A stretch of DNA of 64,000 bases, taken from the NCBI GenBank assembly GCA_041651055.1, contig JBAZJW010000001.1, positions 536,506 to 600,505 on the forward strand, read 5' to 3'. The DNA is from Minisyncoccota bacterium. Lineage in GTDB: Bacteria > Patescibacteriota > Minisyncoccia > Phycocordibacterales > UBA5272. The translations under genes and the position numbers were made by a program. The notes under the pieces were generated by a model. The model saw only the letters and a list, made by a program, of their open reading frames with translations, was not told where the DNA came from and searched no databases. Positions 6,863 through 40,464 of this stretch are shown in pieces (the first letter of the stretch is position 1; each line of letters begins with the position of its first letter).

Positions 6863-7013
6863 AGTAAGTAATACTTTTTTCCCAACTGTAATAAAAGAAA
6901 AAGAGTTATTAAAGTATACTACATATAATAATAATGTCAATAGTAGTGTGGAAAAGAAAAACCCCGCGTTGCGAAATGCAAAGCGGGGTGCCCATGCGGG
7001 ACTTTGTGAAAAA

Positions 7014-8785: not shown

Positions 8786-8852
8786 TGTGTCATTCCAAAT
8801 TTAATTTGGAATCCAGTGAACACTGGACCCCAATTTTCATTGGGGTGACACC
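8786..8852. promoter_or_regulatory. Copy B of the three-palindrome / cloverleaf-like element, about 40 bp upstream of the -35 of promoter 8715-8742.
   Basis: TGTGTCA-ATTCCAAATTTAATTTGGAAT-CCAGTGAACACTGG-ACCCCAATTTTCATTGGGG-TGACACC: three different palindromes or hairpins enclosed by a closing helix. Confidence 0.5.
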
Positions 8853-9484: not shown

Positions 9485-9547
9485 TGTCATTCCAAATTTA
9501 ATTTGGAATCCAGTGGACACTGGACCCCAATTTTCATTGGGGTGACA
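9485..9547. promoter_or_regulatory. Copy C of the three-palindrome / cloverleaf-like element, upstream of the 8935-9357 gene.
   Basis: TGTCA-TTCCAAATTTAATTTGGAAT-CCAGTGGACACTGG-ACCCCAATTTTCATTGGGG-TGACA; about 97% identical to copy B. Confidence 0.5.
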
Positions 9548-9644
9548 AATACGAAGATTACTTTACAAACTTTATGAACTTTTTAAACTTTCGACTCCTC
9601 TGTATCCACTCATCACTAATGCCGAATGCCTATATACTGTCTCT

Positions 9645-21449: not shown

Positions 21450-21660
21450 AGTTTTTTCTTACTTGGGAGAAGTAAAACCTCCTTTTAGATTCCAAATTTC
21501 TTTCTCCTAATTTAAAATCTCTTTTTCTTTTTCAAGTAACCCCTAAAACCAAACGATGTATCCGCCTGCTGGCGGATCATCTCACTCTCGCCTCGTCAAG
21601 CTCCGAGAGTTGGTTTGTAGGGGTTACTTGAGGGTGGTGAATACGGATGCGTATCAAACT

Positions 21661-21776
21661 ACTCCTCACCTAACCTTTTATATCAACTCACGGACCGCGA
21701 CGGCGGGAGTGGGAGGCAACTTTTCAGCAGAAAAGTATGTCGTTTGATATAAAGGGTTGAGGTGAAAAAAGAGAAA
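21661..21776 (+). repeat. Copy L of a 115-nt hairpin-forming repeat (inverted partner at 36108-36255).
   Basis: ACTCCTCACCTAACCTTTTATATCAACTCACGGACCGCGACGGCGGGAGTGGGAGGCAACTTTTCAGCAGAAAAGTATGTCGTTTGATATAAAGGGTTGAGGTGAAAAAAGAGAA. The ends form a stem of about 22 bp (CACCTAACCTTTTATATCAA / TTGATATAAAGGGTTGAGGTG). Confidence 0.8.
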
Positions 21777-21840: not shown

Positions 21841-22827
21841 TTATAGTCCATTTAAAGAAGGATCGGAAAGACACGCATTTGCTTCGCAGGCATAATTTTT
21901 TACGAAGGTCATGTTTGTGGCGGAAGGTCCTGGATTAATTGGGCAGGCCCATTTTGGAATCGCACTTGTAAAGCCTGTAGAAGTATTACAATCAGCACTG
22001 GGATCATTTGAATTCATTCCAACTGTTCCGCAGCAGTTGTATGCCGCGAACACGCTTGCAGGAGCAGGAACATTGCCATAGGTTTGTGCTCCCATTTTCC
22101 CAGCCAATAGCTGTGCTCCTCGTGAGATGTTGGTTGCTGGGTCAAGAATAGAACCACTGCATGCACCAGGTTGGTTTATTTGCATGAGACCGCAGTCATG
22201 TGACTGGTTGTCATTCACATGATCAGCATTAACATCTAAAGAGCGATTCTCTTTACATAAAAGAACAATAAGCATCTTTACGTCGACCCCATTATTTGCG
22301 GCTGCTGTTTTTAGGAGGGGTAAATATCGAGTGTAATTACAACCACTAAGAGCACTGCATGTTGCTGCGCCACAAACATTTCCAGAACTAAGAGATGAAA
22401 GAGTGCTTTGGACAGTTGCTGCCGGCACCGCACCCGTCGCAGCCACCCCTCCCGTTCCCGCGGCCCCACCTGTTACCATCGCTCCCCCCTTCACTCCCTC
22501 CGTCTTTAATACCGCAAGCCCAACATCTCCATTAAGTAAATCCTTATTAAACGTATAGATAACAATAAACATAGAAAACACACCAAGTAATCCAACCGTT
22601 ACCCTTTTAAACTCTTCATTCGACATCTTTACATACTTCTCAGACGCAGCCATTCTCCATATACCTGCTAATGCATATCTATAAAAAGCAGCAGCTACAA
22701 TTGCCACAAACAACAACGTATACAAAAACTTAGACGTTGCAAGAAAAGACCCTGTAATCTGTGTAGTGGGAGACACAGCTGCTCCGGTGATTTGGGAGAC
22801 GATGGAGGGTTCGAGGTTTTGGTACAT
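21841..22827 (-). CDS. Membrane-anchored peptidoglycan lytic transglycosylase (2-TM N-module plus SLT-like domain; VirB1-like role).
   Basis: N-terminal two TM helices. C-terminal ENRSLDVNADHV...SHDCGLMQINQ resembles the SLT E...GLMQ catalytic motif. The 5' 320 bp is nearly identical to 24201-25031. Confidence 0.6.
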   Translation of the reverse strand: MYQNLEPSIVSQITGAAVSPTTQITGSFLATSKFLYTLLFVAIVAAAFYRYALAGIWRMAASEKYVKMSNEEFKRVTVGLLGVFSMFIVIYTFNKDLLNGDVGLAVLKTEGVKGGAMVTGGAAGTGGVAATGAVPAATVQSTLSSLSSGNVCGAATCSALSGCNYTRYLPLLKTAAANNGVDVKMLIVLLCKENRSLDVNADHVNDNQSHDCGLMQINQPGACSGSILDPATNISRGAQLLAGKMGAQTYGNVPAPASVFAAYNCCGTVGMNSNDPSADCNTSTGFTSAIPKWACPINPGPSATNMTFVKNYACEANACLSDPSLNGL

Positions 22828-22829
22828 AG

Positions 22830-24146
22830 TTATTCAACGCTAATGAGATTCGTTCGAAGTAACCACAGAGAACCGTTTTGTTTTTGAATAAATCCCATAG
22901 AAACATTGTCTGGAGAAAGAACAGGGTTAGTTATATCCATTTCCCCATCTGATTCATTGAATGAATATAAAGGGTATGTGGCTCCTGATGTCGTATCAAC
23001 AATTTTTAATGTATCGGTGAAGTGCGTTCTTCCTTGGAACCAATCATCAGGCAGGCCCTCTTCGGCAATCGGTATCATAACGGGAACGGCACATAGAAGA
23101 AAATCTCTAACACCCCAGACACATTTCGAAGCAAGTGTTGGAGAAGAAAGGACTATTTCTTTTTGTGATTGAGAAATAAAAGCAACAAGACCTCTGTCTG
23201 TCCACACACTACTTAAAAAAGTTCCTTTCTCTCCAGGATTACTCATGAGTCCAGTCTTATCACCAGTGCGATACTCAAAAGAAGGAAGAGAAACAGTCAT
23301 TCCTAAAACATAAGCTGAAGGATTGCTTGTAGCATAGAGCGTGTCTCCACCATATGAAAGAGACCATTCTTTGAAAGGAGATGTTGAGACCAAGCCTCCT
23401 CCTTTTGCTGTAATGGTATAGATGGCACTTCCGTTTGTCGATGGGACAAGATAAGAAAGAAGTGTTCCTTTTTTATTGGTGGCAATTGAGGTTATTCCAA
23501 GAGGAAGTGATGTCATTTTTGTAAGTGACTGAGGGCTTCCGTTTGGAAGAGAGTTCGGAATTATTGCTAGTACTGTTGTTATGACTTGCTTGTCTTGGTC
23601 GAAAGAACGTATGGCAACGCGTGTCCCATTTTCAAAAATGTATGCATCATGAACTCCCAAGACTGTGGTGTTGGTTACCTGTCTAGTTACTCCTTCTTTT
23701 AGATCTTGCTCATAAATATATCCTGTCGCCCTATCGACAAACATGAATATGGTTGAAGTTGCTCTAATCGTCTTCTTTACCATAAGAGGTGTAGTTGTTC
23801 CTTTTGTTGTCGTTGTAGAAAACACATCAAGAAGTATTTGTCGTGTCACAAAAGTCTGTCCTGTTGCTGGTTTGTCCCACACTTTAGTTAAAGCTTGGAG
23901 AGTGGTCGGTACAGACGTTGTCCCTGTTGTTTGGTTTGATCCCGTAGATGCATTGTTAGTATCAGGACCCCCTCCTCCAAAAATAAATTGAAAACCCTTC
24001 GTTAAAGGAGAGGTCGGAAGTGAATTTGTTGGTTTCGCAAGCGAGGGTGTTATGGCCGGTGTTACATAAACGAAATACCACACAAGAATGACAATAGAAA
24101 AAAGAAGAACGAGTCCGACGATAAAAAGTAAACGACGATTATTCAT
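22830..24146 (-). CDS. N-terminally anchored extracytoplasmic protein of unknown function.
   Basis: 438 aa; single N-terminal TM then Thr/Ser-rich linker. Confidence 0.5.
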   Translation of the reverse strand: MNNRRLLFIVGLVLLFSIVILVWYFVYVTPAITPSLAKPTNSLPTSPLTKGFQFIFGGGGPDTNNASTGSNQTTGTTSVPTTLQALTKVWDKPATGQTFVTRQILLDVFSTTTTKGTTTPLMVKKTIRATSTIFMFVDRATGYIYEQDLKEGVTRQVTNTTVLGVHDAYIFENGTRVAIRSFDQDKQVITTVLAIIPNSLPNGSPQSLTKMTSLPLGITSIATNKKGTLLSYLVPSTNGSAIYTITAKGGGLVSTSPFKEWSLSYGGDTLYATSNPSAYVLGMTVSLPSFEYRTGDKTGLMSNPGEKGTFLSSVWTDRGLVAFISQSQKEIVLSSPTLASKCVWGVRDFLLCAVPVMIPIAEEGLPDDWFQGRTHFTDTLKIVDTTSGATYPLYSFNESDGEMDITNPVLSPDNVSMGFIQKQNGSLWLLRTNLISVE

Positions 24147-24200
24147 ACAGAAAGTATAGCATCCTCTTCTGCAAGAGGATGGGTTAAAAAAGTTTTATTA

Positions 24201-25031
24201 CTAGTGTCCACTAAATGAAACATGAAAGTGTTCCGTTGTTGTTAAGGAATCACACCCTGGAGATTCGTCCCAGAATTTAAATCCTCCCCAGGCATACCGT
24301 ATATCACACCCTGTCATCGATCCTGCTGCTGTACCATTTGTTTTAATAAAATTTAAAAGACCAGAAGACAGACTCAAATCCACAGCTTCTTTCCCTACTC
24401 CGTGATTAGAGTTAGCGCTGTGAGGTTCTGTTCCTCCTGTTATGAGAAGGCTGCAGGTTGGACAGGCTGTCCTTAGCTTTTGAAGCATAGTAATGGTTGC
24501 TGGGTTAAGGCCAGCCACATTTGTACACCCTGTGGTTTGTGCTCCAGAACAAGGGTCGTGGTTGATGGATATCCCCGCTAATTGTGCACGAACATCGGCT
24601 TCTGAAGTGCTCGCCCCTGCCGGTACCGCACCCGTTGCCCCAGTCGCCCCTCCTCCACCAAAAACTACAGCCCCTCCACTCACCCCCTCCGTCTTTAATA
24701 CCGCAAGCCCAACATCTCCATTAAGTAAATCCTTATTAAACGTATAGATAACAATAAACATAGAAAACACACCAAGTAATCCAACCGTTACCCTTTTAAA
24801 CTCTTCATTCGACATCTTTACATACTTCTCAGACGCAGCCATTCTCCATATACCTGCTAATGCATATCTATAAAAAGCAGCAGCTACAATTGCCACAAAC
24901 AACAACGTATACAAAAACTTAGACGTTGCAAGAAAAGACCCTGTAATCTGTGTAGTGGGAGACACAGCTGCTCCGGTGATTTGGGAGACGATGGAGGGTT
25001 CGAGGTTGGAATATGATACAGAGGATGCCAT
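24201..25031 (-). CDS. Membrane-anchored peptidase M15-like peptidoglycan hydrolase (same 2-TM N-module as 21841-22827).
   Basis: C-terminal LITGGTEPHSANSNHGVGKEAVDLS and TTEHFHVSF resemble the M15/VanY zinc-binding motifs (SxHxxGxAxD ... EpWH). Confidence 0.55.
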   Translation of the reverse strand: MASSVSYSNLEPSIVSQITGAAVSPTTQITGSFLATSKFLYTLLFVAIVAAAFYRYALAGIWRMAASEKYVKMSNEEFKRVTVGLLGVFSMFIVIYTFNKDLLNGDVGLAVLKTEGVSGGAVVFGGGGATGATGAVPAGASTSEADVRAQLAGISINHDPCSGAQTTGCTNVAGLNPATITMLQKLRTACPTCSLLITGGTEPHSANSNHGVGKEAVDLSLSSGLLNFIKTNGTAAGSMTGCDIRYAWGGFKFWDESPGCDSLTTTEHFHVSFSGH

Positions 25032-25037
25032 GGATGA

Positions 25038-26012
25038 CTATTGTTTACGAGTATCAAACACAAGATCAATATCAACCTGTGCTTTTTGTAATCTCCTTAC
25101 ACTGTTGTCGACACTGATAGAAAGAGGTCGAGATCCGTAGCTATCTTTCTTTGGTGAAAGTGAAAGAAGTGTCCCTCCTATTGGGGTGATAGGCATACCG
25201 TCTAGTGACCAGTCATATGAAACAGTAGATCCGAGAGATCCTCGAGATGAAAGGAAGAAAGGAACAAGACTTAATGTAAAATCTTTTGTTGTTTCAAATC
25301 GTCGAGTGATAAGGTTTGTAAAATCTGTCCCCAAAACAGCATCATACGTATAAAGAAGAGGCATTACTTTGTGTGGATATATCTCTATGGTGTTTTCTGC
25401 TTTTGTACCATAGGGTGCCGTTGCTATAACTTTTACGGTTGTTGAATCTCTTACATACTCAAGAGGAATGGGTACGGATTGTTTTCCTGCTCCGGAAAGA
25501 GATTCGAGCAGTTCGTCGTTTGCATACCATGTATATGAAATAAGATCTGCCGGAACTTTCTTTCCATTCTCACTCATTGCGGGAATAGCGGAAACACGCG
25601 CTGTTGACCCTTCGCTTCCAAGAGACCTCCCCTCATAAAAAGGAGGAACATATCCTTCGGAGGATTCGTAGAGAAGAGAGACAGATTCAGGAACAAGGCT
25701 TACAGAGGCTTCGAGCGTTGTGCCATTTGCGGTGACTGCTTTCGCACGAAGAGGTAACACTTCACCAGAAGCACCTGTTCGCACGGTTATTTCTTTTTTA
25801 CCAAAACCTGAAAGAATTTGTTTTGTTCCAGAATACCAGGTGATCATCGCAGTAGAAACGTTAAATGAATAACTTGAAAGGGTGAGTGTTACAGAAGAAT
25901 ACGGTGCTGGGCTCGTAGGATTTATATCGATGGTGCCATCTACACTTGACGCAGACGCCACAAAAGGCGTTGTTAAAAAAAGAACAGTTAAAAAGATGTG
26001 GGTTATTTTCAT
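25038..26012 (-). CDS. Secreted protein of unknown function.
   Basis: 324 aa with signal peptide MKITHIFLTVLFLTTPFVASA. Confidence 0.5.
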   Translation of the reverse strand: MKITHIFLTVLFLTTPFVASASSVDGTIDINPTSPAPYSSVTLTLSSYSFNVSTAMITWYSGTKQILSGFGKKEITVRTGASGEVLPLRAKAVTANGTTLEASVSLVPESVSLLYESSEGYVPPFYEGRSLGSEGSTARVSAIPAMSENGKKVPADLISYTWYANDELLESLSGAGKQSVPIPLEYVRDSTTVKVIATAPYGTKAENTIEIYPHKVMPLLYTYDAVLGTDFTNLITRRFETTKDFTLSLVPFFLSSRGSLGSTVSYDWSLDGMPITPIGGTLLSLSPKKDSYGSRPLSISVDNSVRRLQKAQVDIDLVFDTRKQ

Positions 26013-27826
26013 AGACCTCTTGATTGTGCTACTTCATCTTTCATGGCTTTTATTTGAAGAAGTTGAGACGGATCACTTGTGATAATTTGATCTTCTGTAT
26101 ACGATGCTACAATTTTGATTGCTACATGTTTGAGTCCTGCAAAGAATATTCCCTCCCCTACACCAGATTCGAGAAGTAGGAACTTTTCTTCATCAGTTAA
26201 ATTGAAGGTCTTTTGTACAAGGTCGATAGATGAAGGAGATTGTTTGAGGAGAAGTTGAATGGAAGAGTTTGTGATAATAGGAAGACCATAGGGTGACTTC
26301 AAAAAGTCTCCAACATCTTGGGTTATTGTCGCAAGTCCTAGGTAATATTTTCGTCCACGCTTTGCAAGACCGAAAAGGAAAGATGCAGTGTCATCATTTT
26401 TCATCATAATCCACGCTTCATCCACCACGAGAAGTCGTTTTTTGATGACTTTACGAACGGAATTCCAAATATAATGCGTGATAATGTACATTGCTACCGG
26501 CTTCAGTTCTTCCTCCATGTCTCGAATAGAAAAACATACAAGTTTTTTATTGATGTCTACGTTTGAGGGTTGGTTGATAAAGCCAGACCATGTCCCTTTC
26601 GTGTATTTTGAAAGACGCTGAATTAAGTCTGTTGAACCATCGATTCCACCGAGAACTGTTTCGAAGTCTGAAAGAAGAGGTGGCTCAAGTTTTGTGAAAT
26701 CAACATCACCACTAATATCCTTGAGGGCATAGGTCTCTGTAATTGCCTGGTCAATGATTGCGTCTTCGGCTGGTGTGAGACCTCCTAGCATCACACGGAA
26801 CAATCCCACGAGGTTAACGATGTTTGAACGAAGAACTTCAGACGGAGACTCGTCTTCTGTTGGATGAGGAAGATCAAAAGGATTGATATGGTGCTCACTT
26901 GTAAGTGAAATGTCGAAATATCTACCTCCAACAGACTCTGCGAGATATTCGTATTCACGTTCTGGGTCGATAATAATAACTTCCGTGTCGAACATCAATG
27001 TGCGGAGAATTTCCAATTTTGTAAGATAACTTTTTCCAGATCCAGACTTGGCGAATACGATGGAGTTATAGTTTTCAAGAGAAAAACGATCAAACAAAAT
27101 AAGCGAACCGTTGTGACGGTTAAGTCCGTAGAGTATCCCCCTATCAGAAGAAAGGTCAAAAGATACGAAAGGAAAGAATGATGAAAGAGGAGATGTGTTT
27201 AATTTATTTTTGATGCCGAGCAAGTCTTGTCCAAGAGGAAGCGTTGAAAGAAAACCTGTGTCTTGCTGAAAGAGCGCTGGCTTCACATAAATAAGACGAC
27301 TTTCGAGAATATTTTTGATTTCACTTTCTACCTTGTCCACCTCATCTTCACTGCCACCGTAAATAGAAATATACAAAGAGACTTCAAACATTTTTTCCTG
27401 AGCCTGTGTTAATCCGTCACGCAAATCTTCGAGGTCCTTGTAGGCAACATCAAGCGAAGGGTCTCGTACAAGTCCCTTTTCTTCACGTGTCATGATTTGA
27501 CTCTCTACTTCAGCTACCTTGCGTTGAAATTTTTTCATTACATCACCGGTATCAAGCGGTGTCACGTGAATGGCAACGTCGAATACTTTGTCTAAGTTGA
27601 TGATGGGACTCAACCAATTCTCAGAAAGATATCTCGGATATGAAATGACAAAGTAAGAACGTACGATACTTGTGCCTAAGTTGAGTGATTTCGGTTGTAC
27701 ACCAAGAGCACTTGGTGCGATGATGTCTTTCAATTGCATTTCGGCAACTTTGTACACCTGCTCTGGAAGAAGTGGGGATACCGGAGAGTCTTGTTTTTTT
27801 GAATTGAGAAAATCGAAAAGTCCCAT
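26009..27826 (-). CDS. virB4: Type IV secretion ATPase, VirB4/TrbE/CagE family.
   Basis: 605 aa; Walker A FAKSGSGKSY, Walker B LLVVDEAW; length and motif spacing of Gram-positive-type VirB4 (TcpF/PrgJ-like). Confidence 0.85.
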   Translation of the reverse strand: MGLFDFLNSKKQDSPVSPLLPEQVYKVAEMQLKDIIAPSALGVQPKSLNLGTSIVRSYFVISYPRYLSENWLSPIINLDKVFDVAIHVTPLDTGDVMKKFQRKVAEVESQIMTREEKGLVRDPSLDVAYKDLEDLRDGLTQAQEKMFEVSLYISIYGGSEDEVDKVESEIKNILESRLIYVKPALFQQDTGFLSTLPLGQDLLGIKNKLNTSPLSSFFPFVSFDLSSDRGILYGLNRHNGSLILFDRFSLENYNSIVFAKSGSGKSYLTKLEILRTLMFDTEVIIIDPEREYEYLAESVGGRYFDISLTSEHHINPFDLPHPTEDESPSEVLRSNIVNLVGLFRVMLGGLTPAEDAIIDQAITETYALKDISGDVDFTKLEPPLLSDFETVLGGIDGSTDLIQRLSKYTKGTWSGFINQPSNVDINKKLVCFSIRDMEEELKPVAMYIITHYIWNSVRKVIKKRLLVVDEAWIMMKNDDTASFLFGLAKRGRKYYLGLATITQDVGDFLKSPYGLPIITNSSIQLLLKQSPSSIDLVQKTFNLTDEEKFLLLESGVGEGIFFAGLKHVAIKIVASYTEDQIITSDPSQLLQIKAMKDEVAQSRGL

Positions 27827-27830
27827 AGAA

Positions 27831-28469
27831 TTATTCTTGTGTTATTTTAGGTGCCGAACGATCTTGCTCGCTTGGGTTGAAGAGTTTATAGAAAAGCTCT
27901 ACAACCTCTTCTGTGCCAAGCTTTTGTGCACGAATACCGAAACGGGAAAGCCCTTGCACTACGGTCGCAATGCGTTGCTCGAGTTGTATACGAGCTGCGG
28001 TGAAGGATGCTTGATTTTCGGCGGAAGTATTATTTCCAAGGCCAAACGAAAGCAGTGACGATGTACCTGAAGGCTTTGCGTTTTCTTGGAAATATGGAAT
28101 GACAATAAAGAAATGCTTGGTCATAATGTTTGTCTCGTCTGCAAATTTTTTAATGAACCCCATGTACTCATGGATTTGTATTTTCAAAAGGTCTTCTTTG
28201 ATTTCGGAACTGCGAGATTGAAGTAGTTCCATGTAGGGTTTGATGTTGAGTCTGCGAGATTGAATGAAAAATTCCACAGGGAAATCAAGTGAATTGAGGA
28301 GGGTTTGGAATTGTAGCAAAATAGCCTGTTGTTCGTCCTCGCTCTTAAGAGCGAGGTTGAGTGAATTGGTGATGAGCACTGCACGAAGTTCCCCTGTTTT
28401 GAGTACGACGACACCATCACGAACTCTTTCGATTGGTACAAATTGTTGTGTTGCTGTTCCGACTGCCAT
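27831..28469 (-). CDS. T4SS-cluster hypothetical protein (no TM).
   Basis: 212 aa; 5 nt downstream of virB4. Confidence 0.45.
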   Translation of the reverse strand: MAVGTATQQFVPIERVRDGVVVLKTGELRAVLITNSLNLALKSEDEQQAILLQFQTLLNSLDFPVEFFIQSRRLNIKPYMELLQSRSSEIKEDLLKIQIHEYMGFIKKFADETNIMTKHFFIVIPYFQENAKPSGTSSLLSFGLGNNTSAENQASFTAARIQLEQRIATVVQGLSRFGIRAQKLGTEEVVELFYKLFNPSEQDRSAPKITQE

Positions 28470-28594
28470 GTGAACCTAGTATATCAGACAAGAGAGAAGA
28501 GACGTGTGAGAAAGTACACAAAAGAGAAGAGGCTACTCTTCTCAATATTCAATGAATTTAATAATCAATATTCAAAAGTGATCCAAATACTAGA

Positions 28595-28615
28595 ATTACA
28601 ATGACCGTCATTGCA
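28595..28615. promoter_or_regulatory. Operator-like palindrome ATTACAATGACCGTCATTGCA (also a perfect 49-bp inverted pair at 33133-33181).
   Basis: CAATGACCGTCATTG is self-complementary. Located in the 180-bp gap between operon segments and preceded by AATATTCAA motifs at 28541-28578. Confidence 0.45.
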
Positions 28616-28649
28616 AAAAAACACAATCAACCACCACATAGCTCTCCCC

Positions 28650-29078
28650 CTACTCTTTTTCTTCTTGATTGTGATCAAACACATCTAATCCAAGAGCTAC
28701 ATCGTGTAATCTGTCTTTGTTTGCTTTTGAAAAAATAACTTCTTTAGTTGTGTCTGCTACCACCTTATCGATATGATCATCCCCCACCGCAGGTGTCTCA
28801 GGCTGCTTCCATGTGTAAATCTTTGCACCAGTGTAATATGCGAAAGCACTTTCTAGTATTTCTCCAAAAGAGCGATTATTTATTTTAACAAAAGCGAGCG
28901 CAAGGAAAAGTCCCGCCACAGGAACGATAAGAATAATGGCAATAATTTTAATGGAAACGAATGTCCAAATAAGAAATGAGAAACCTCCAGCTCCGAGCAG
29001 ATACCCGAACTGTTTTAACGTAAGAGGGCCGACGACTTTGTCTTCTGTATCGATGAATTGTGGTACGCGGAATTGCAT
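28650..29078 (-). CDS. VirB3/PrgI-like small membrane protein.
   Basis: 142 aa, two adjacent TMs, N-terminal FIDTEDKVVGPLTLKQFGYL; position next to virB4. Confidence 0.45.
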   Translation of the reverse strand: MQFRVPQFIDTEDKVVGPLTLKQFGYLLGAGGFSFLIWTFVSIKIIAIILIVPVAGLFLALAFVKINNRSFGEILESAFAYYTGAKIYTWKQPETPAVGDDHIDKVVADTTKEVIFSKANKDRLHDVALGLDVFDHNQEEKE

Positions 29079-29152
29079 ATATTTTAGTATACCTCACTTT
29101 ATTGTTTCCTCGTAAAGAGCTAAACAAGAGAAGGAATGTCTTGATTTTTTGT

Positions 29153-29234
29153 AAAATATTCAATAAAACAATAATCAATATTCAGAATTATGCGAAAATG
29201 CTAGTAGATATTAAATATTGTTTTATTGAATATT
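29153..29234. repeat. Inverted pair of the AATATTCAATAAAACAA motif (AATATTCAATAAAACAATAATCAATATTCAG ... AAATATTGTTTTATTGAATATT).
   Basis: The same 17-mer occurs at 11351-11377 and inverted at 13216-13243; TTGAATATTCAA is a 12-bp palindrome. Confidence 0.6.
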
Positions 29235-29985
29235 ACTCTGAGATTTCCCTATACGGATCCACATTGTACTTCGTCGGCGCGGTGCTGTAGGTCGCAGCTT
29301 GAAGTTTTGGCTTCGCCGTTGTCACCCCCTGATCACCGAACATATAGTCTTCCAGTGCGACGGTTTGATCAAGAGAAACATCTTCCTTTTTTTCTATCGA
29401 AGCGATTTGCTCTTGTATATGAGAAAGTCTAGCCTCCACCTCCTCATCATTTGGAATAGATCCTAAGATTTGTAATTGTTCGAGAAGTTGTGAGCGTGAT
29501 CCAGGTGTAAGAACGAAAGGTTTTTTCTGAGCCGGCTTAACCCCTTTCGATACCTCTGACTGATCTTTTACCATTCCTGACTCGCGTTTTGTGGTATCGA
29601 GAATTTCTTTTCGTAATTCGTCGGGAGATCTTTCTCCTTGAAAGACAAGCTCCTTGACCCCACCTTCTGCTTTTCCAAGAATAGAAATGCGGGCCTTTTC
29701 GAGAATACTTTTTTCTAGGTCGGTTGCAATTTTATATGCGTCTTCTGGGGAGACTTTTACAAGATCTTGAAGTGCAAGAAGAACATCTTTAGGCTCAAGT
29801 GCTCCGATAAGAATAAAAGAAATGACATTTGAGAGCGCGACGTATGCGTTTACGGGAAGATTATATGTCTTTCCTAAAATTGCTGTTGCCTTATTAACCT
29901 CATCTCCTTCGATGAGATGTTGAACATCTGCTGGGGCTGCATCGAACAATTCATCTAAGTTTTTTGCTATGTATGGAGGGTTCAT
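29233..29985 (-). CDS. Hypothetical protein of the T4SS-like cluster.
   Basis: 250 aa; hydrophobic segment NVISFILIGAL. Confidence 0.45.
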   Translation of the reverse strand: MNPPYIAKNLDELFDAAPADVQHLIEGDEVNKATAILGKTYNLPVNAYVALSNVISFILIGALEPKDVLLALQDLVKVSPEDAYKIATDLEKSILEKARISILGKAEGGVKELVFQGERSPDELRKEILDTTKRESGMVKDQSEVSKGVKPAQKKPFVLTPGSRSQLLEQLQILGSIPNDEEVEARLSHIQEQIASIEKKEDVSLDQTVALEDYMFGDQGVTTAKPKLQAATYSTAPTKYNVDPYREISE

Positions 29986-29988
29986 AGA

Positions 29989-32961
29989 TTATACAGTTGC
30001 TGCGGCTCCTGCGGGAGAGGGTGTAACAGTTGGAGGCCGTGTTATGGTTTCACCTGATGAGGAAGATCCTCCTTGGGCTTTTTTAATTGTTTCCACCGCA
30101 AGGTCTTCAAAAGGAACAAAGTTGTCTGCTCCTCCACTCTTTGGAGAAGGGCTTGTTGGTGGTGTTGTTATTGAACCTTCTTCCGCCGCATCATCTCCTT
30201 TTTGAGCTCTGGCAATAGTTTCTGCTGCAAACTGTTCTGATGCCTGTTGCTGTTCGTGTGTTTGAGTATCAATAAGATTTATTGCACTTTTTTGTTTTTC
30301 TTCACGTCTCTTCGCTGTTCTTTCAGAAAAAGATTCTATTTGTGGATTAAATGAAGAAGAATTAAAAGTCTTCTGCATGTTCACGACATCGCTTGCCGAC
30401 ATTACAGACGGAGGGTTTGTGATTCCGTTTGGATTTGTCCGTTGAGCATTATTTGGAGGAGGTGTAACACCTCGCACAGGGGCGACGAAGGAATTATTTC
30501 CTACGGCGCCACGTACTCTAGGAGTATTTTGTCTAAAGATTGCAGGTTGTTGATTTGGTTGCCATGGAGTTCTCGGAGTTCCTGCTGGAACATTTCCTGT
30601 CGGTGCAACAAAAGGAGTTCCGGGTGTTGTTGGGTTTGTCGTTTGGTTTTGTGCATTAACTGCCTGAGCTGTCATAACCGCTTGAGTTGCGGCGCTCGGT
30701 TGCCCTTGAAGGTTTGTAGCCATTGTTCCGAAAGCTGAAACTCCAGGACTTACCGTATTTGCTTGCGATGTAATTTGATCTCGAAGACTTTTTGGCAAGC
30801 TTTCAAAAAAGGCATCTTTTCTGTCTCCGTCTTTCATGCTATTGTACTTTTTCACCTGATCTCCTTCCTCTTCTTTTATTTTTGCTGCAGTTATTTGCCC
30901 ATCAGTACGAATTCCTCCGATGTTGGCACCTTGTAATTGCCCTCCACTTGATTTTTGTGTCAGATATTTTTCACGAGCATCTCCATCTTTAATGCTTGCA
31001 TACTTCGAGCGCATTGCCTTATCTTTTTCAGCGAAGGTTTTATCATATGTCGCATCTGATCCTTTGCTCATACCTCCCATGCCCATGATTCCAGCGCCCA
31101 TGCCAGCCTTGGTCAGACCCTTATTCACTGCTCCAATATTTCTCGCGTCATATGTGCTCGTTGCAAGAGAATTCGTGAGAGAATAAAGGCCTCGCCCTGT
31201 TCGACTGCCTTGCATCTTATCCATCCATCCACTGTCTCGTGCGCTCGCCGCGATCTTTCCTGCTGTTCCTCGTGCGAGGAATCCTGCACCCCCTGTCGCC
31301 ACACCGAGACCGAATCCTCCGACTTTACCCATCGCATCTGTGGCAAAGGTTCCTGCTTCTCCTGCGATTTTCTTGGTAACTTTCATTGTAATATTGAGCA
31401 TGATGAGCATCATCGCAAGGTTGAAGAATGTCACGATTGTCCCCTCGCCTGTACCAGAAAGCCCAGATAAAGAACCTGCACTTTGTTGCAAAAGTCCTGG
31501 CTTATTAAACACGTCCATAAATTTTAGAGAAAGCGCAAGCATTATCATAAACACAGGAGCCACAACAAGTTGTTCAAAGAATAGTTTTCGAAGCGTTTTT
31601 GCTTTTTCTCCAAGAGCAGGAATCACACTGTCTACGAAAAGTATAGGAGAAGCGACAGTGAGAAATATTAAAAGTGCCGTACGTACAATTATTATTCCAG
31701 CTGCCATAAAGAATATGTATGCGGCATACAAAACAAAGACGACGGCCATAAGGGCTCCTGCGGTGGTATTGATTCCGCCAACAAGCCCTTTTGACGAAGA
31801 GTCTCCTGCCACTTTAGTGGCGCTCATTACAAGGTCTTGCAGTCCAAGCTTATTCATAATAAGTGCCCCCGGGGTACTCTTTCCTGCGCTAAACAAATCA
31901 GCAAGACTTCCTGAGAGTGCATCTGGACCTACAGCACTTGAGTATATATTTAGTGCAACTATATTAGAGACATCAATGAGCGTGCGCGTGAGCGGGTATG
32001 AAAAGTTTACGAAAAGTGCGAAGATGATAAGCCATGGGAAAAAAGCTTCAAAGGTTTTTTCTCTTCCAATGATATACATGAAACCAAGATACAGCCCCGC
32101 GAACACAATGAAGAGCGATACGATTTGCCGTACAATGGCCCAAATAGGATAAAGGTCGGATGTTGCCCATTTGCTGAAATTAAGAATACCGAGCTGCACT
32201 CCATAGTTGAGAACGTTTGCCCCGAACCACACAAGGAATCCCGCAATCTGAAGGAGTGTGTTTTTAATAATCCACCCAATGAGTGAGTCAATACAGGCAA
32301 CAAGGTTTCCTGAGGCGAGACTACAGTCACTTGGACGAGTGTCACGAACTACCGCCGGAGTGTTTGTGTTTCCTGCAGCTGCTGCAGTAATTGTTGAAGG
32401 GTTGTTTTGAACATTGGCCAGATCGCTTCCCGCAGTAGTATTTCCTGATTTTATTTGTAGAGCAGTTAATAGTGCTCCAGTTTGTATTTCTTTTGTGTAC
32501 TGATCATACGCACCTCTTTGAGGTGCACTTGCACTGTATTTATTGATTAAATTTTTACTAGCTGCACCGTCAACAGAGCTTTGCCAAGCTTGGATGGCTT
32601 TAATTTGAGCATCTACAGCCGGAGTTGCTTTTTGTTTTTCTGCTTCAAAAACAGAGGAGTAAGCGCTAAAACTTAAAAGTTCGGCACTTTTAAAGTCTAA
32701 GGTCGCCTGTCTTTGAATGGTATAAGTTGGAGAGTTTGCGTCTACGGTGAGAAGCTTGTCATCAAGAGCTTTTATGAAGGCATCATGATCAGATTTTACA
32801 ATCCCAAAAAAATAGTCATAAGTTCCTTGAGAATTAAGTGCATTCCCCGTTGCTGTTTGACTGTCTGTCGCTTGTGCAAAAGCTCTCTCCGGCATCACAA
32901 ATCCACCCAACACGCCGACAAACATGAGAGAAATAACAGCATACAACCCTAGTCTTTTCAT
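29989..32961 (-). CDS. VirB6/TrbL-like polytopic membrane protein with large N-terminal periplasmic region and Pro/Thr-rich C-terminal tail.
   Basis: Start set at the MKRLGLYAVISLMFVGVLGG signal (track start 33099 is read-through). At least 8 TM helices in the middle; low-complexity C-terminus. Confidence 0.6.
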   Translation of the reverse strand: MKRLGLYAVISLMFVGVLGGFVMPERAFAQATDSQTATGNALNSQGTYDYFFGIVKSDHDAFIKALDDKLLTVDANSPTYTIQRQATLDFKSAELLSFSAYSSVFEAEKQKATPAVDAQIKAIQAWQSSVDGAASKNLINKYSASAPQRGAYDQYTKEIQTGALLTALQIKSGNTTAGSDLANVQNNPSTITAAAAGNTNTPAVVRDTRPSDCSLASGNLVACIDSLIGWIIKNTLLQIAGFLVWFGANVLNYGVQLGILNFSKWATSDLYPIWAIVRQIVSLFIVFAGLYLGFMYIIGREKTFEAFFPWLIIFALFVNFSYPLTRTLIDVSNIVALNIYSSAVGPDALSGSLADLFSAGKSTPGALIMNKLGLQDLVMSATKVAGDSSSKGLVGGINTTAGALMAVVFVLYAAYIFFMAAGIIIVRTALLIFLTVASPILFVDSVIPALGEKAKTLRKLFFEQLVVAPVFMIMLALSLKFMDVFNKPGLLQQSAGSLSGLSGTGEGTIVTFFNLAMMLIMLNITMKVTKKIAGEAGTFATDAMGKVGGFGLGVATGGAGFLARGTAGKIAASARDSGWMDKMQGSRTGRGLYSLTNSLATSTYDARNIGAVNKGLTKAGMGAGIMGMGGMSKGSDATYDKTFAEKDKAMRSKYASIKDGDAREKYLTQKSSGGQLQGANIGGIRTDGQITAAKIKEEEGDQVKKYNSMKDGDRKDAFFESLPKSLRDQITSQANTVSPGVSAFGTMATNLQGQPSAATQAVMTAQAVNAQNQTTNPTTPGTPFVAPTGNVPAGTPRTPWQPNQQPAIFRQNTPRVRGAVGNNSFVAPVRGVTPPPNNAQRTNPNGITNPPSVMSASDVVNMQKTFNSSSFNPQIESFSERTAKRREEKQKSAINLIDTQTHEQQQASEQFAAETIARAQKGDDAAEEGSITTPPTSPSPKSGGADNFVPFEDLAVETIKKAQGGSSSSGETITRPPTVTPSPAGAAATV

Positions 32962-33132
32962 GGGTTTAGTGTACCACAAGAATCTTGGCAAATTAGTGCA
33001 CAGAGGGTAAGAGAAAGCTAGAAGTTGGAAGCTAAAGGCTAGAAGCTTACACGGGGGAATATTCAACCTGCCTGCGCAGGCAGGTGAAACAATTTTCAAT
33101 ATTCAAACATTATTCAAAATTCAAACGCCGCA

Positions 33133-33181
33133 ATTACAATGACCGTCATTGCACAGGGCCCGCAATGACGGTCATTGTAAT
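33133..33181. promoter_or_regulatory. Perfect 20-bp inverted repeat ATTACAATGACCGTCATTGC / GCAATGACGGTCATTGTAAT with a 9-nt spacer; candidate operator or terminator.
   Basis: Read directly. Preceded by the palindrome ACCTGCCTGCGCAGGCAGGT (33068-33090) and AATATTCAA motifs. Confidence 0.5.
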
Positions 33182-33308
33182 GTGTAATTGTATGTATCTG
33201 TATTTCTCTAAACTTTACACTTTATTTCTTTACACCTTCACCCAGCCCTCCCATCTCTTACCTTTTCACCCTCCCCTTTATTCCTTTACACTCTTATCTT
33301 GTACACTT

Positions 33309-35063
33309 TTACCACATCTCTAGTCGTTGACGTGTAGACGCGCAGTCGGCTTGGTACGTTGTGAGAGCCCCTCCTTCAAGCGAAGCTGTCTCAGCCTCTC
33401 CTTTGTATGTCTGGTAATCCCCTTCTCTTGATATTCCTGAAGTAAGGCTTGGTAATTTTTGAGAATCGACTTGGTTTTGATATGCATTAAAGGTATTTAG
33501 AATTTCTTCACTAGAAAGAGATGCTTCTATTTTGTTCTGTGTGTTTGTTACCAGTGTTTTTGTTGTTCCTATTAGAGAAATTTCTGCTCTAAGTTTTACA
33601 ATAAGTGCGTCATTACTTGCCTTCTTCCCTGTGTAGTAGTTTGTAAATGAAGCCTGTGTCGCGCTCGCTTGTGACTGAGGGTAATCTGCTACAAGCTTGT
33701 CATAACACGCCTTTACGGTATCTATTTGACCTTGAAAGACTTGAACACTAGAAATGAAGCTTTGATCTGTTGTTTCTAGTGTTGCAAGGGACTCTGCGTG
33801 CATAGCGAGCTGGTCTTTTGTCGGCTTGGTTAGTGTTGTCTTTGCTGTAGGGTTGTTCGTTAAATCTTTTACAGGAACTGTCGTAGATGTCGTCGTTGTG
33901 TTATTCGGAGTAACAGCAGTGACGGTGGTCGTTTGTCCACCAACGGTTGCCTGTGCCGTAGAAGCCCCTCCGCCAGAACCTCCTCCACTAAGAGGACTCA
34001 TTATGCCGTTAATAAGACCGATTGTTGTGAAAGCTGTACTGATAAGTGATCCCGCCCCTTTTCCGAATCCTGCAAGTGCAACTTTTGTTGGTCCATCGAT
34101 TGCTCCTTTGAATGAATTATTGAGCACACTCGCTGCTTGCTGTATTTCTTCTTGAATACAAGGAAGGCTTAGAGCGGCTGCCCCCGTTACCGTTACTCCA
34201 TTGGCATCAGTCGTCGTTCTTTTCGTACACACGGTTTTACTTTTTATTCCACCTCCTGCCGCTGTGTCTGCTTTGGCAAGTTCTACTTTATCTGCCGCCG
34301 CCTTATCTATTACTTGCTGAGAGAGTACGGATTTTGTGTATGCGTTATCCCCTCCTGTTGTGGCAAGCCAGTTGTCCCATGAAGGATTTATTGCTGACAC
34401 TGCTTTGATTGCAGCGAGTGTTTTCGGATCTGACAAGCTTCCGCAGAGAGCGTTGTTGAGCTCTGTTTTGCGTGCCGTATATTGTGCTTGTGTATAGTTC
34501 GGATTGACTGACATTACGTCGAGCTTCGCCTGGGCAGAGAGGGCTGCGTCGGTGCACCTGGTTTTCTGTTCTGCCGCCGGAATACCGGAGGCTCCAAGTA
34601 TTGCAAGCTTTGTAGAAAGTGGAGCTGCGTCGAATTTTGTGGTTGCAATAACAGAACCCAAAATACTATTACTATATACGCCATTTTGTTTTGCGATATC
34701 GCCAAGACTTGCGTTTACTACTGCAAGTGTTTTGTTTTGAAGGTATAACTCTGGATTCTTAATGAGAAGTGCCTCTGTCCCAAGAGATCCTTTAATAAGA
34801 TTTTGAATAGCGTCCCCTGACTGCATAATACTGATGAGCGTCATCGCGTCTCTCATTGGAATGAGGACGTTATCATTTATTGTGGCAAGGGTTTGCTGTG
34901 TTGCTGTTATCGGTGTTGCAAAAGCCGTGATGGTTTCTTTCACTGCATCGAACCATCCCTGTACTACATTTTTACAGTTGGAACAATAAATAGCATTTAC
35001 CTGTTGAGGTGTGGAAGAATAGAGAATCGTTGTAAAGAGAACACTGAGAATAATTTTTTTCAT
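33309..35063 (-). CDS. Large secreted protein of unknown function.
   Basis: 584 aa with signal peptide MKKIILSVLFTTILYSS; Ala/Thr-rich. Confidence 0.5.
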   Translation of the reverse strand: MKKIILSVLFTTILYSSTPQQVNAIYCSNCKNVVQGWFDAVKETITAFATPITATQQTLATINDNVLIPMRDAMTLISIMQSGDAIQNLIKGSLGTEALLIKNPELYLQNKTLAVVNASLGDIAKQNGVYSNSILGSVIATTKFDAAPLSTKLAILGASGIPAAEQKTRCTDAALSAQAKLDVMSVNPNYTQAQYTARKTELNNALCGSLSDPKTLAAIKAVSAINPSWDNWLATTGGDNAYTKSVLSQQVIDKAAADKVELAKADTAAGGGIKSKTVCTKRTTTDANGVTVTGAAALSLPCIQEEIQQAASVLNNSFKGAIDGPTKVALAGFGKGAGSLISTAFTTIGLINGIMSPLSGGGSGGGASTAQATVGGQTTTVTAVTPNNTTTTSTTVPVKDLTNNPTAKTTLTKPTKDQLAMHAESLATLETTDQSFISSVQVFQGQIDTVKACYDKLVADYPQSQASATQASFTNYYTGKKASNDALIVKLRAEISLIGTTKTLVTNTQNKIEASLSSEEILNTFNAYQNQVDSQKLPSLTSGISREGDYQTYKGEAETASLEGGALTTYQADCASTRQRLEMW

Positions 35064-35068
35064 AGATA

Positions 35069-36001
35069 TTATTTAGGAGTATATCCTACGGTGAAGACGT
35101 ACCCTTTTTCTTTTGATGTAAAGCTTATATTTTTTGAATCAAAATAATGAGAAAGTTCTTGGTGAATACGAAGCACAGACATTGTGCTATTTTGATATTT
35201 TTGAAAAGCAAGTGTTGCACGAAGTGGGTCCGTGGAGGCGTGTGAAAGGTCTCCTAATGTGTCTCTATATAACGCTATACGGTTAATTGCCAGTAAATGG
35301 TATGCAGAAGCCGACAAAGGAACAGGTAACGCTAGCAACTTTTTTAATTTTGCATCAACTCGAGTGTAATTCTTTGCCAAAGGTGCAAGATCCTCTGCTT
35401 TTTTTGTATCTGTGAAATTTTGTACTGCAGTAAGGTCTTCCAGTGCTGCTTGCTCTGTAATAACATCATCCAGAATTACAGCAACTGCATTTCCATACAC
35501 CCGCACAGTTTCGTTTGCTTCATTTTTTACAACGTTGAGATCTTTAAAAGAATACGTTGTCGGAACCATTTTTGCGGCTTCTTCTGCCATTAATTGATTC
35601 ACGACATTTTGTTGTGATGCTTCATCGGTAATGTTGTTGCTTTCGAGGTATGTCGAAGCAACATAGAGATTTTTTGAAAATGATGAGGTAAGGTTGTTCG
35701 GATCATTAAGTGCCGCTATGGCTTTCGGGTCTGGTTGCGAATTTTGCAATTCTTGAGCCGCTGCAGCACCTCCTTCAGAACTTAGAATAAGTTCTTTCCA
35801 GCTTATTTGTCCGTTGCCATCCGCATCTTTTGCGAAATCATTCACCGTGGTCAACTTATTGAAGTCCACAGGTGTGTAATTGCTTACTTGCGGCTTGACT
35901 CCTATCCACCTTGCAGGAACAAAAGCACTCATAATTAAAAGCATAACGATACCTCCGATAATAAGGAGAGGTTTTGAAGGTGAGACAGGTTGGGGATTCA
36001 T
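35069..36001 (-). CDS. N-terminally anchored extracytoplasmic protein; first gene of the minus-strand block.
   Basis: Start set at MNPQPVSPSKPLLIIGGIVMLLIMSAF (TM); the track's longer N-terminus is leader read-through. Confidence 0.5.
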   Translation of the reverse strand: MNPQPVSPSKPLLIIGGIVMLLIMSAFVPARWIGVKPQVSNYTPVDFNKLTTVNDFAKDADGNGQISWKELILSSEGGAAAAQELQNSQPDPKAIAALNDPNNLTSSFSKNLYVASTYLESNNITDEASQQNVVNQLMAEEAAKMVPTTYSFKDLNVVKNEANETVRVYGNAVAVILDDVITEQAALEDLTAVQNFTDTKKAEDLAPLAKNYTRVDAKLKKLLALPVPLSASAYHLLAINRIALYRDTLGDLSHASTDPLRATLAFQKYQNSTMSVLRIHQELSHYFDSKNISFTSKEKGYVFTVGYTPK

Positions 36002-36107
36002 ATCTGTCAGTATACATTGAAAAAGAATACAAAAGATTGGTATGTTAACATTCTTTCTCCTTGAGACCAGGCTGGTCTTTTTTTGTTTTAAATATTTTTT
36101 TAAAGTC

Positions 36108-36255
36108 TTCTCTTTTTTCACCTCAACCCTTTATATCAAACGACATACTTTTCTGCTGAAAAGTTGCCTCCTACTCCCGCCGTCGCGGGTCGACTGGTGA
36201 TTAGCCGACACCTGTAGACGGTCCGTGAGTTTATATAAAAGGTTAGGTGAGGAGT
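36108..36255 (-). repeat. Copy R of the hairpin repeat, inverted relative to 21661-21776; carries a 32-nt insertion flanked by a GACC microhomology.
   Basis: The reverse complement matches copy L over about 115 nt at 96-98% identity apart from the insertion GTCTACAGGTGTCGGCTAATCACCAGTCGACC. Confidence 0.8.
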
Positions 36256-36287
36256 ATTGGGTTCAATATAGTACTCTCAAGCACACT

Positions 36288-36341
36288 GCAAGGCGAGGCC
36301 TTGTGGCCACAAGGCCTCGCCTTGCAGCCCCCCTTTTTTTT
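36288..36341 (+). terminator. Strong hairpin GCAAGGCGAGGCCTTGTGG/CCACAAGGCCTCGCCTTGC followed by AGCCCCCC-TTTTTTTT; its T-run overlaps the ksgA stop.
   Basis: Read directly: 19-bp stem plus T8. No plus-strand gene lies upstream, so it may be bidirectional, or it may terminate a plus-strand transcript of the repeat element. Confidence 0.6.
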
Positions 36342-40282: not shown

Positions 40283-40386
40283 GGTGGGTAGTTTACCACA
40301 AGGCGAGATAGAGAAAAGGTCAGAGGTGAGAGTGTAAAGGAGAGAGGGAAACCAGACGAGAGAGCTGGGTGAAAGTGTAAAGTTTA

Positions 40387-40430
40387 GAGAAAATACAGAT
40401 ACACACAATTGTGTGTATCTGTATTTTCTC
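40387..40430. repeat. 44-bp perfect palindrome GAGAAAATACAGATACACACAA|TTGTGTGTATCTGTATTTTCTC.
   Basis: Read directly; lies inside a 120-nt element (40300-40440) whose inverted relative sits at 33190-33310. Confidence 0.75.
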
Positions 40431-40464
40431 TCTCCTTTATTTCTCTACACTCTTCCCTTCCCAA

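Follow-up and report, generated by a model that had tools for sequence, protein, structure and literature searches.

Here we describe two neighbouring genes of a Candidatus Paceibacterota metagenome-assembled genome (MAG) that begin with the same 323-nt tract and continue into unrelated, putative cell-wall hydrolases. They lie on a 775-kb contig, within the 64-kb stretch of DNA analysed here (the window, 64,000 nucleotides, with all positions counted from its first letter). We consider it probable that both products are VirB1-equivalent wall-remodelling enzymes of a type IV secretion system (T4SS) of Paceibacteria, members of the candidate phyla radiation (CPR), each enzyme being built on a VirB2-like pilin hairpin and the two hairpin copies being homogenised by gene conversion. 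The features at the centre of this reading are the following.

24201..25031, minus strand: gene for a pilin module joined to a LAS-type (M15-like) peptidase-like domain; open reading frame (ORF) of 276 aa, exact database match P0001, NCBI WC444_02980
24685..25007, minus strand: repeat copy A, in the LAS-type gene; 323-nt exact tract encoding a T4SS_pilin-like two-helix module
24204..24620, minus strand: LAS-type zinc-peptidase-like head, residues 138–276, from alignments, an AlphaFold2 (AF2) model of the head and fold matches
21841..22827, minus strand: gene for a pilin module joined to an SLT/GH23 lytic transglycosylase-like domain; ORF of 328 aa, P0005, NCBI WC444_02970
22496..22818, minus strand: repeat copy B, in the SLT-type gene; the same 323-nt tract as copy A
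21844..22377, minus strand: SLT/GH23 head, about residues 151–328, Cys-rich, from Pfam SLT, conserved motifs and PDB profile matches

A first-pass annotation had proposed that the two genes share near-identical 5' segments and diverge completely after a Gly-rich linker. Local alignment of the two genes and a self-blastn of the window both reveal that positions 22496–22818 and 24685–25007 are identical over 323 nt without a mismatch, one base beyond the end (25006) proposed at first. The match extends to 328 nt at 99.7% (22491–22818 against 24680–25007, E 4e-172 in the self-blastn), is the longest repeat in the window and cannot be chance. Weaker gapped similarity runs ~75 nt further into the linker, for example between 22419–22440 and 24617–24638 (91%), and the two copies stand ~2.2 kb apart in direct orientation. 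The tract begins at codon 4 or 9 (...NLEPS...) and finishes at ...LKTEG, and the shared module of ~108 aa that it encodes contains two hydrophobic segments, in agreement with the two transmembrane (TM) helices first proposed. Local alignment also bears out the divergence, as the codons upstream of the tract and the regions past the linker are unrelated between the two proteins, and the peptide strings originally quoted are present in the ORFs (..ENRSLDVNADHV..SHDCGLMQINQ for the SLT-type protein and ..SNHGVGKEAVDLS..TEHFHVSF for the LAS-type protein).

We gathered 80 related loci through VirB4 (designated by L numbers below). Eight of these genomes are resolved across the region (L001, L006, L007, L009, L011, L012, L013 and L015), and in all of them the gene order is VirB4, a PKD-like protein, a pilin module with a peptidase-type head, a gene for a protein of ~438 aa, and a pilin module with an SLT head. 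Within seven of these relatives and within the window, the 5' tracts of the two module genes match over 294–400 nt at 98–100%, while in L011 the identity is about 85%. The ends of the tract vary by genome, extending to nt 420 in L001 and beginning only at nt 97 in L012. Between genomes, protein identity is 45–70% for the module, 31–64% for the heads and 85–93% for VirB4. Synonymous divergence (dS) between the module copies of one genome is 0–0.06 in seven of the nine resolved genomes, and between genomes it reaches a saturated 0.8–2.9, with nonsynonymous divergence (dN) of 0.3–0.6. The L011 pair (dS 0.66, dN 0.067, omega 0.10) has drifted at synonymous sites while the protein is still constrained, and in the distant lineages L031, L034 and L077, which have two or three modules each, identity within the locus is 83–95%.

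Because the heads are non-homologous to each other and orthologous by type and position, repeated non-reciprocal recombination limited to the 5' module is the only consistent explanation for this pattern of near-identity within genomes and divergence between them. The module copies evolve in concert through recurrent gene conversion, and the comparison of related loci strongly supports the recent conversion suggested in the first-pass annotation. We also considered unusually fast evolution of the module and rejected it, as the PKD-like protein, the 438-aa protein and the heads are equally diverged, all being about 35–55% identical.

NCBIfam and Pfam scans of the window module gave no match, and a word-indexed search with the module alone returned nothing although the full-length protein is in the database, which reflects a limit of the index and not an absence. 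In most of the 80 loci, a profile built from the close modules only matched proteins at the equivalent place just past VirB4, and it matched PF18895-positive proteins of L031 at E 1e-12 and 5e-7. After convergence the module was present in 73 proteins from 61 loci; 46 of the 73 match Pfam T4SS_pilin (PF18895) and six match TrbC/VirB2 (PF04956). Comparing the window clade with distant T4SS_pilin-positive modules by hhalign gave a probability of 95.9% (E 6e-9, 85 columns), and the motifs G-G-x-x-Y-M/T-S and T-I-N-P/K-x-L are common to the module and PF18895 members. The VirB2/TrbC-type identity proposed for the module is thus supported through transitive and profile–profile homology and not by a direct Pfam match, and these sequence comparisons support its assignment as a diverged, signal-peptide-less T4SS_pilin (VirB2-like) two-helix hairpin.

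The AF2 model of the full-length 276-aa protein predicts a helical hairpin (residues 33–64 and 68–103), a disordered linker and an alpha/beta head, and Kyte-Doolittle hydropathy places the hydrophobic segments at about residues 31–62 and 78–99 in the same numbering. Five Lys/Arg residues lie in the loop between the helices and none in the N-terminal tail. From hydropathy and charge we predict a topology with the N terminus outside, the basic loop in the cytoplasm and the C terminus outside. The window ORFs start 3–8 residues ahead of a Y-x-x-L-E-P motif and have no possible in-frame upstream extension, and in distant relatives (L031, L077) Y-x-x-L-E/A-P directly follows a Sec signal peptide; the window clade has lost this signal peptide. 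Neither gene 5' end (24993–25031 and 22819–22827) encodes a signal peptide. This implies that insertion of the N-terminal tail is independent of a Sec signal.

The 328-aa protein ends in what, judged by its sequence, is a GH23 lysozyme-like domain with an intact catalytic Glu and a predicted glycan-cutting activity. Pfam SLT (PF01464) matches the full protein with 22.0 bits and the head alone with 23.7 bits, a small margin over the cut-off of 21.3, and orthologues score 29–35 bits. The head profile matches goose-type lysozyme in the PDB (E 6e-6, an alignment that spans the ES...GLMQ region) as well as MltC and the type III secretion system transglycosylase EtgA. Catalytic E193 (in CKE) and the segment D211-C-G-L-M-Q-I-N218 are invariant in the alignment of SLT-type proteins, and the window protein carries an AYN-type motif, FAAYNCC. 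The SLT-like lytic transglycosylase head proposed for this gene therefore stands, with Pfam SLT above its cut-off and the catalytic Glu and GLMQIN motif invariant.

The head of the 276-aa protein had been described as M15/VanY-like, a description that holds at the level of the LAS superfamily and not at that of Pfam M15 membership. The window head matches no Pfam M15 family (VanY PF02557, M15_3 PF08291, M15_4 PF13539 and related models) even at E 10, searches with 120 and 141 of its relatives gave a single marginal M15_3 match (E 0.032), and general NCBIfam and Pfam scans of the head gave none. In the PDB, neither the single sequence nor a 120-sequence profile found a match, and the sole match of a 12-sequence profile was a non-significant one to the Sonic hedgehog N-domain (E 0.9) over the GH...H...D segment. 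The segment aligned by HMMER, GH...H-x-x-G-x-A-V-D, corresponds to the H135/H141/D148 region of Sonic hedgehog. Residues E202, H204, H210, D218, H268 and H270 and four Cys are invariant in the clade alignments; the clade motif, GH-x5-H-x7-D...H-x-H, and that of the wider family, H-x6-D...E-x-x-H-W-D, follow the logic of LAS/M15 zinc peptidases.

A fold search with the full-length model returned histidine-kinase-like matches, which we discarded as spurious and caused by the combination of hairpin and alpha/beta domain, and the head was therefore modelled alone. With 120 homologues this model reached a predicted local distance difference test (pLDDT) score of 91.8. Among viral models it matched two proteins at probability 0.99, a microvirus protein annotated as 'Sonic hedgehog' and a phage multidomain wall hydrolase (TMq 0.55), followed by actinophage tape-measure proteins. 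The head family numbers 2,843 cluster representatives at E <= 1e-3, and 25 of the top 141 are fused to T4SS_pilin; other fusions involve PG_binding_1/3, WXG100/LXG and the core domain of extracellular contractile injection systems (eCIS), all of them wall-targeting or delivery contexts. The conserved motifs, together with the few matches of note (Hedgehog N-domains, MepA and phage lysis-type proteins), point to a zinc-peptidase-like domain of LAS type, M15-like, whose family the current Pfam M15 models do not cover. Homologues of this head are annotated from springtails (Folsomia, Orchesella, Allacma), the rotifer Adineta, the tardigrade Hypsibius and fungi (P0053, P0060, P0065, P0068, P0072, P0075, P0087, P0099 and P0119), possibly through horizontal transfer of an antibacterial wall hydrolase or through contamination. 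The family also has many members in Nonomuraea and Streptomyces.

The two window genes belong to a broader set of module fusions. C-terminal extensions of at least 50 aa are present in 66 of the 73 module-bearing proteins. They form at least seven families, with 24 singletons besides; the LAS type accounts for 17, the SLT type for 9 and one unnamed family for 7, and among the heads Pfam recognises SLT, SLT_2, SLT_3, CHAP, NlpC/P60 and subtilase. In L013, whose VirB4 is 89% identical to that of the window, a different Cys/His head occupies the LAS-head position; it has weak CHAP-like similarity (E 0.064) and no PDB match, and its gene still has a 294-nt tract at 99.3% in common with the SLT paralog. 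The diversity of heads across 61 loci strongly supports the earlier proposal of an interchangeable module. Stand-alone pilin modules were found neither in the 64-kb window nor within ±10 kb of VirB4 in close relatives. As a separate observation, L031 (13882–15306) encodes a single 474-aa protein with two tandem T4SS_pilin modules that are 92% identical to each other at the nucleotide level; its C-terminal domain is common to proteins of L034 and L077, and a third module lies in the next gene.

Both genes close a 14-kb co-directional cluster (21841–36121) with three recognisable T4SS parts. Its other members are listed below.

22830..24146, minus strand: 438-aa protein between the two paralogs, with an N-terminal TM segment; ORF, position kept in relatives
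25038..26012, minus strand: 324-aa secreted protein with a weak PKD-like match, between VirB4 and the first paralog; ORF, conserved in relatives
26009..27826, minus strand: VirB4-like T4SS ATPase, C-terminal part, 605 aa; NCBIfam conju_CD1110 and Pfam P-loop_TraG
27831..28469, minus strand: TrsD-like protein corresponding to the N-terminal part of VirB4, a separate 212-aa gene; matches to NCBIfam VirB4_plasma, CD1110 N-terminus and TrsD
28650..29078, minus strand: PrgI (VirB3-like); Pfam PrgI, 41 bits
29233..36121, minus strand: remaining cluster genes of 250, 1036, 584 and 350 aa, unannotated ORFs

The ATPase part of VirB4 scores 368 bits with conju_CD1110 (cut-off 325). Upstream of the module genes by 1–4 kb, and in the same orientation, are PrgI and the split VirB4, and in relatives every module-bearing gene is found just downstream of VirB4. 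One edge of the cluster is marked by ksgA and the opposite edge by yidC-rnpA-rpmH-dnaA-dnaN. It is a chromosomal, origin-proximal, relaxase-less monoderm-type (Gram-positive-type) T4SS of Patescibacteria and matches the layout recently published for this group (PMC12102498). According to three reports, the Patescibacteria T4SS is essential for epibiotic growth in the one experimental system (PMC10633639, PMC11665869, PMC12857230), and one of them counts it among the few machines shown to be essential for epibiosis and calls its function completely unknown (PMC11665869). The 438-aa protein has no Pfam or NCBIfam match; L013, L031 and L077 have a homologue of it at this position, and its identity between genomes is 33–51%. 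A 9-bp stem hairpin (24160–24181, minus strand) in the 54 nt that separate the LAS-type gene from that of the 438-aa protein is a possible weak internal terminator or attenuator. The division of VirB4 into two adjacent genes (212 aa and 605 aa) is also seen in Southlakia epibionticum (SEML1_0009 and SEML1_0008).

From these data we infer enzymatic activities, a membrane topology and docking at the T4SS that would work together as follows. The pilin module would insert in the membrane and dock both enzymes where pilin is normally handled by the T4SS, with the flexible Gly-rich linker joining it to an extracytoplasmic, disulfide-rich catalytic head. The SLT head would cut glycan strands and the LAS-type head would cut peptide stems or cross-links, so that the two activities would be delivered together where the machine crosses its own wall and possibly that of the host. 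The two copies recombine non-reciprocally again and again, and the module diverges quickly between genomes like other surface-exposed parts of the T4SS. That the fusion occurs in a whole Paceibacteria clade is a Rosetta-stone-type argument that pilin and hydrolase act together at one site.

Several observations weigh against this interpretation. The exact 100% identity of the repeat may be partly an assembler's consensus rounding of about 97–99%. Searched directly against Pfam, the module of the window proteins (~108–111 aa) matches neither T4SS_pilin (PF18895) nor TrbC (PF04956) even at E 10, and a profile of the Pfam-positive pilin modules has A. tumefaciens VirB2 in its top four PDB matches at an E of only about 0.7–1, so the pilin homology rests on intermediate sequences. 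For the LAS-type head, Foldseek gives no PDB match at E <= 1e-3; the weak matches listed comprise Hedgehog N-domains (TMq up to 0.44) and MepA, and VanX, VanY and endolysin are not among them. Homogenisation could be a neutral by-product of having the tracts 2 kb apart, since the module evolves no faster than other exposed components, and conversion is not obligatory, since the L011 pair has drifted to a dS of 0.66. Any selective benefit of module identity would thus stand as a hypothesis beside a neutral result of proximity.

In another arrangement, to which we assign a low probability, the fused proteins would themselves be polymerising pilins, and lytic heads decorating the surface of the filament would breach the host wall. 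The T4SS of this clade would then have no free pilin, and its two enzyme-bearing subunits might, though we doubt it, co-assemble into a short 'lytic pilus' that opens the host wall in epibiosis. Conversion would in that case be selectively kept, as both subunits must fit one rapidly evolving filament lattice and stay compatible for co-polymerisation. In the F- and T-pilus structures the pilin termini face the outside of the filament, and a long flexible linker is predicted after the C terminus of the module here. The only VirB2-like modules in the window, or within 10 kb of VirB4 on either side in close relatives, are the fused ones. Saccharibacteria pilins are essential and encoded apart from the hydrolases, and fusion suggests a physical association; the LAS-type head, moreover, also occurs as toxin-like cargo on WXG100/LXG and eCIS proteins. 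However, polymerisation is itself hypothetical, heads of 140–180 aa on every subunit may clash sterically with a VirB2-type helical lattice, and the 775-kb genome may contain a free pilin gene outside the window. In addition, the hydrolases of monoderm T4SS (PrgK, TraG) act on the wall of the producer.

Less probable still, and purely speculative, is a scheme in which the head is a C-terminal pro-domain cleaved near the motif T-x-N-K-D-L-L-x-G-D-V, a step that would yield, where assembly takes place, as much soluble hydrolase as mature pilin. RP4 TrbC and Ti VirB2 both undergo C-terminal processing, and in the present proteins the strongly conserved motif sits at the end of helix 2, just before a linker that is predicted to be disordered. 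Yet Pfam and NCBIfam scans reveal no protease or cyclase (TraF-like) among the cluster proteins, and the motif need not be a cleavage site, because stand-alone members of the T4SS_pilin family conserve it too (TINPxL).

We regard it as very improbable that the identical tract stems from chimeric joining, repeat collapse or duplication of a contig end. The source is a MAG and De Bruijn assemblers can merge near-identical repeats, so that the 100% could be inflated. However, each copy is in frame in a complete gene whose flanks are unique and whose synteny is conserved, and eight further resolved assemblies, independent of one another and drawn from different studies, repeat the two-gene arrangement with a near-identical tract specific to each genome. 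L011 shows an intermediate state of about 85%, and six other assemblies break inside the module. These six contigs, among the 18 closest (L005, L008, L010, L014, L016 and L018), end 20–90 codons into the first ORF with the module, about 1.0–1.3 kb past VirB4, and the contig of P0002, the closest relative, breaks off after 35 codons of the second paralog. Such breaks indicate a genuine near-exact repeat longer than the assembler k-mer, and with the recurrence of the pattern in independent assemblies the artefact raised as a caution in the first-pass annotation fails as an explanation. Short-read assemblies of this locus are systematically fragmented by the repeat, and surveys may under-count the genes downstream of it, a practical warning for work on CPR genomes in which the T4SS locus is broken from within.

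Two enzymes anchored by pilin hairpins, as we favour, compare closely with the VirB1-like hydrolases of monoderm conjugative T4SS, namely PrgK (pCF10), TraG (pIP501) and TcpG (pCW3). Like these, they are encoded in a Gram-positive-type T4SS operon with VirB4 and PrgI, have an N-terminal membrane anchor followed by extracytoplasmic peptidoglycan hydrolase domains, and would pair a glycan-cutting (SLT) with a peptide-cutting activity (context in PMC12102498). In contrast to the single polypeptide of those systems, the activities here are divided over two, the anchor is a VirB2-like pilin hairpin instead of a single TM helix, the peptidase is of the LAS type instead of CHAP or LytM, and the two anchors are homogenised by gene conversion.

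Another parallel is the SEML1_0006–0019 cluster of S. epibionticum, a member of the Saccharibacteria (Wang et al. 2023, PMC10633639). That cluster is likewise chromosomal, relaxase-less and monoderm-type, with PrgI and a split VirB4, contains PF18895 pilins, and is essential for epibiotic growth. Immediately downstream of its virB4 stand SEML1_0007, structurally matched to Peptidase M15B proteins, and the lysozyme-like SEML1_0006. Whereas pilin and hydrolase are fused here, lack a signal peptide and have near-identical module copies, S. epibionticum encodes them separately. Its six stand-alone PF18895 pilins of ~130 aa have signal peptides and differ in sequence, and the supplementary domain table lists no PF18895 match for SEML1_0006 and SEML1_0007 (PMC10633639). 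Pilin arrays are reported to be highly divergent, with at most 54% identity within arrays. The present Paceibacteria clade fuses pilin and hydrolase, which in the cultivable model are separate essential genes.

The module shares with the VirB2/TrbC pilins of diderm T4SS (PF04956) and with T4SS_pilin (PF18895) a length of ~100 aa, a pair of hydrophobic helices with a short basic loop between them, and a place next to VirB3 and VirB4; unlike them, it has no cleavable signal peptide and carries a C-terminal enzyme of 140–220 aa. In its mode of evolution it recalls tufA and tufB, bacterial paralogs that evolve in concert by gene conversion. As with that pair, the copies are near-identical within a genome, including at synonymous sites, and diverged between genomes, with variable conversion tracts, but only a 300–400-nt 5' module is converted here and the rest of the genes is non-homologous. 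The effect is homogenising and not diversifying, in contrast to Neisseria pilE/pilS or the variable VirB2 arrays of Bartonella and Anaplasma. The combination of one conserved N-terminal module with many unrelated C-terminal enzymatic heads is also that of the LXG, Rhs and contact-dependent inhibition (CDI) polymorphic toxins, and the LAS-like head itself occurs on WXG100/LXG and eCIS proteins. Polymorphic toxins differ in that the module used for trafficking here is a T4SS pilin and that we identified no immunity genes; as wall hydrolases, the heads would plausibly help to build the machine and not to intoxicate.

Earlier papers already describe the T4SS with its VirB2-like pilins, its position close to the origin and the hydrolases near it. 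The fusion of pilin and hydrolase and the homogenisation of the pilin module find no mention in the passages retrieved from papers that cite PF18895, from T4SS reviews and from the S. epibionticum study, and domain-architecture databases may already list such fusions. The locus offers two hypotheses, the targeting of hydrolases to the T4SS by a pilin module and a pilus decorated with hydrolases. It is also a clean case, from nature, of concerted evolution confined to one domain of two genes that are non-homologous elsewhere, and it leads to a family of LAS-type wall-hydrolase-like domains, about 2,800 clusters in size, outside Pfam coverage.

The window contains further repeats apart from the module tract. 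A non-coding element of ~105–140 nt occurs twice in inverted orientation (21660–21775, plus strand, and 36108–36256, minus strand) and brackets the whole T4SS cluster. Its copies match over 81 nt at 98.8% (21695–21775 and 36108–36188) and a further 38 nt at 97%, the second copy having a ~30-nt insertion and a longer internal hairpin. They are predicted to fold into a closing stem of 22 bp that encloses two hairpins (dG -49 and -56 kcal/mol; z -6.6 and -5.8). We rejected its identity as a tRNA or a known RNA, as it is not a tRNA and belongs to no Rfam family, and it was not found in the 80 related loci; it could be a repeat resembling a miniature inverted-repeat transposable element (MITE) or a structured small RNA or untranslated-region element.

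Long perfect or near-perfect palindromes are present at 36286–36327 (42 nt), 40386–40431 (46 nt) and 71–140 (70 nt), the first of which is followed by C6T9 and lies between ksgA and the T4SS cluster; these are probably terminators or hairpins resembling repetitive extragenic palindromic (REP) elements. Diverged tandem DNA repeats (5480–6757; unit offset ~54–216 nt, 75–87% identity) lie within a minus-strand ORF at 3965–7534 (1189 aa) and probably encode a repetitive surface protein. Finally, short direct repeats occur in or near intergenic regions, pairing 8788–8850 with 9485–9547 (63 nt, 98%) and 1001–1046 with 9505–9549 (46 nt, 89%).

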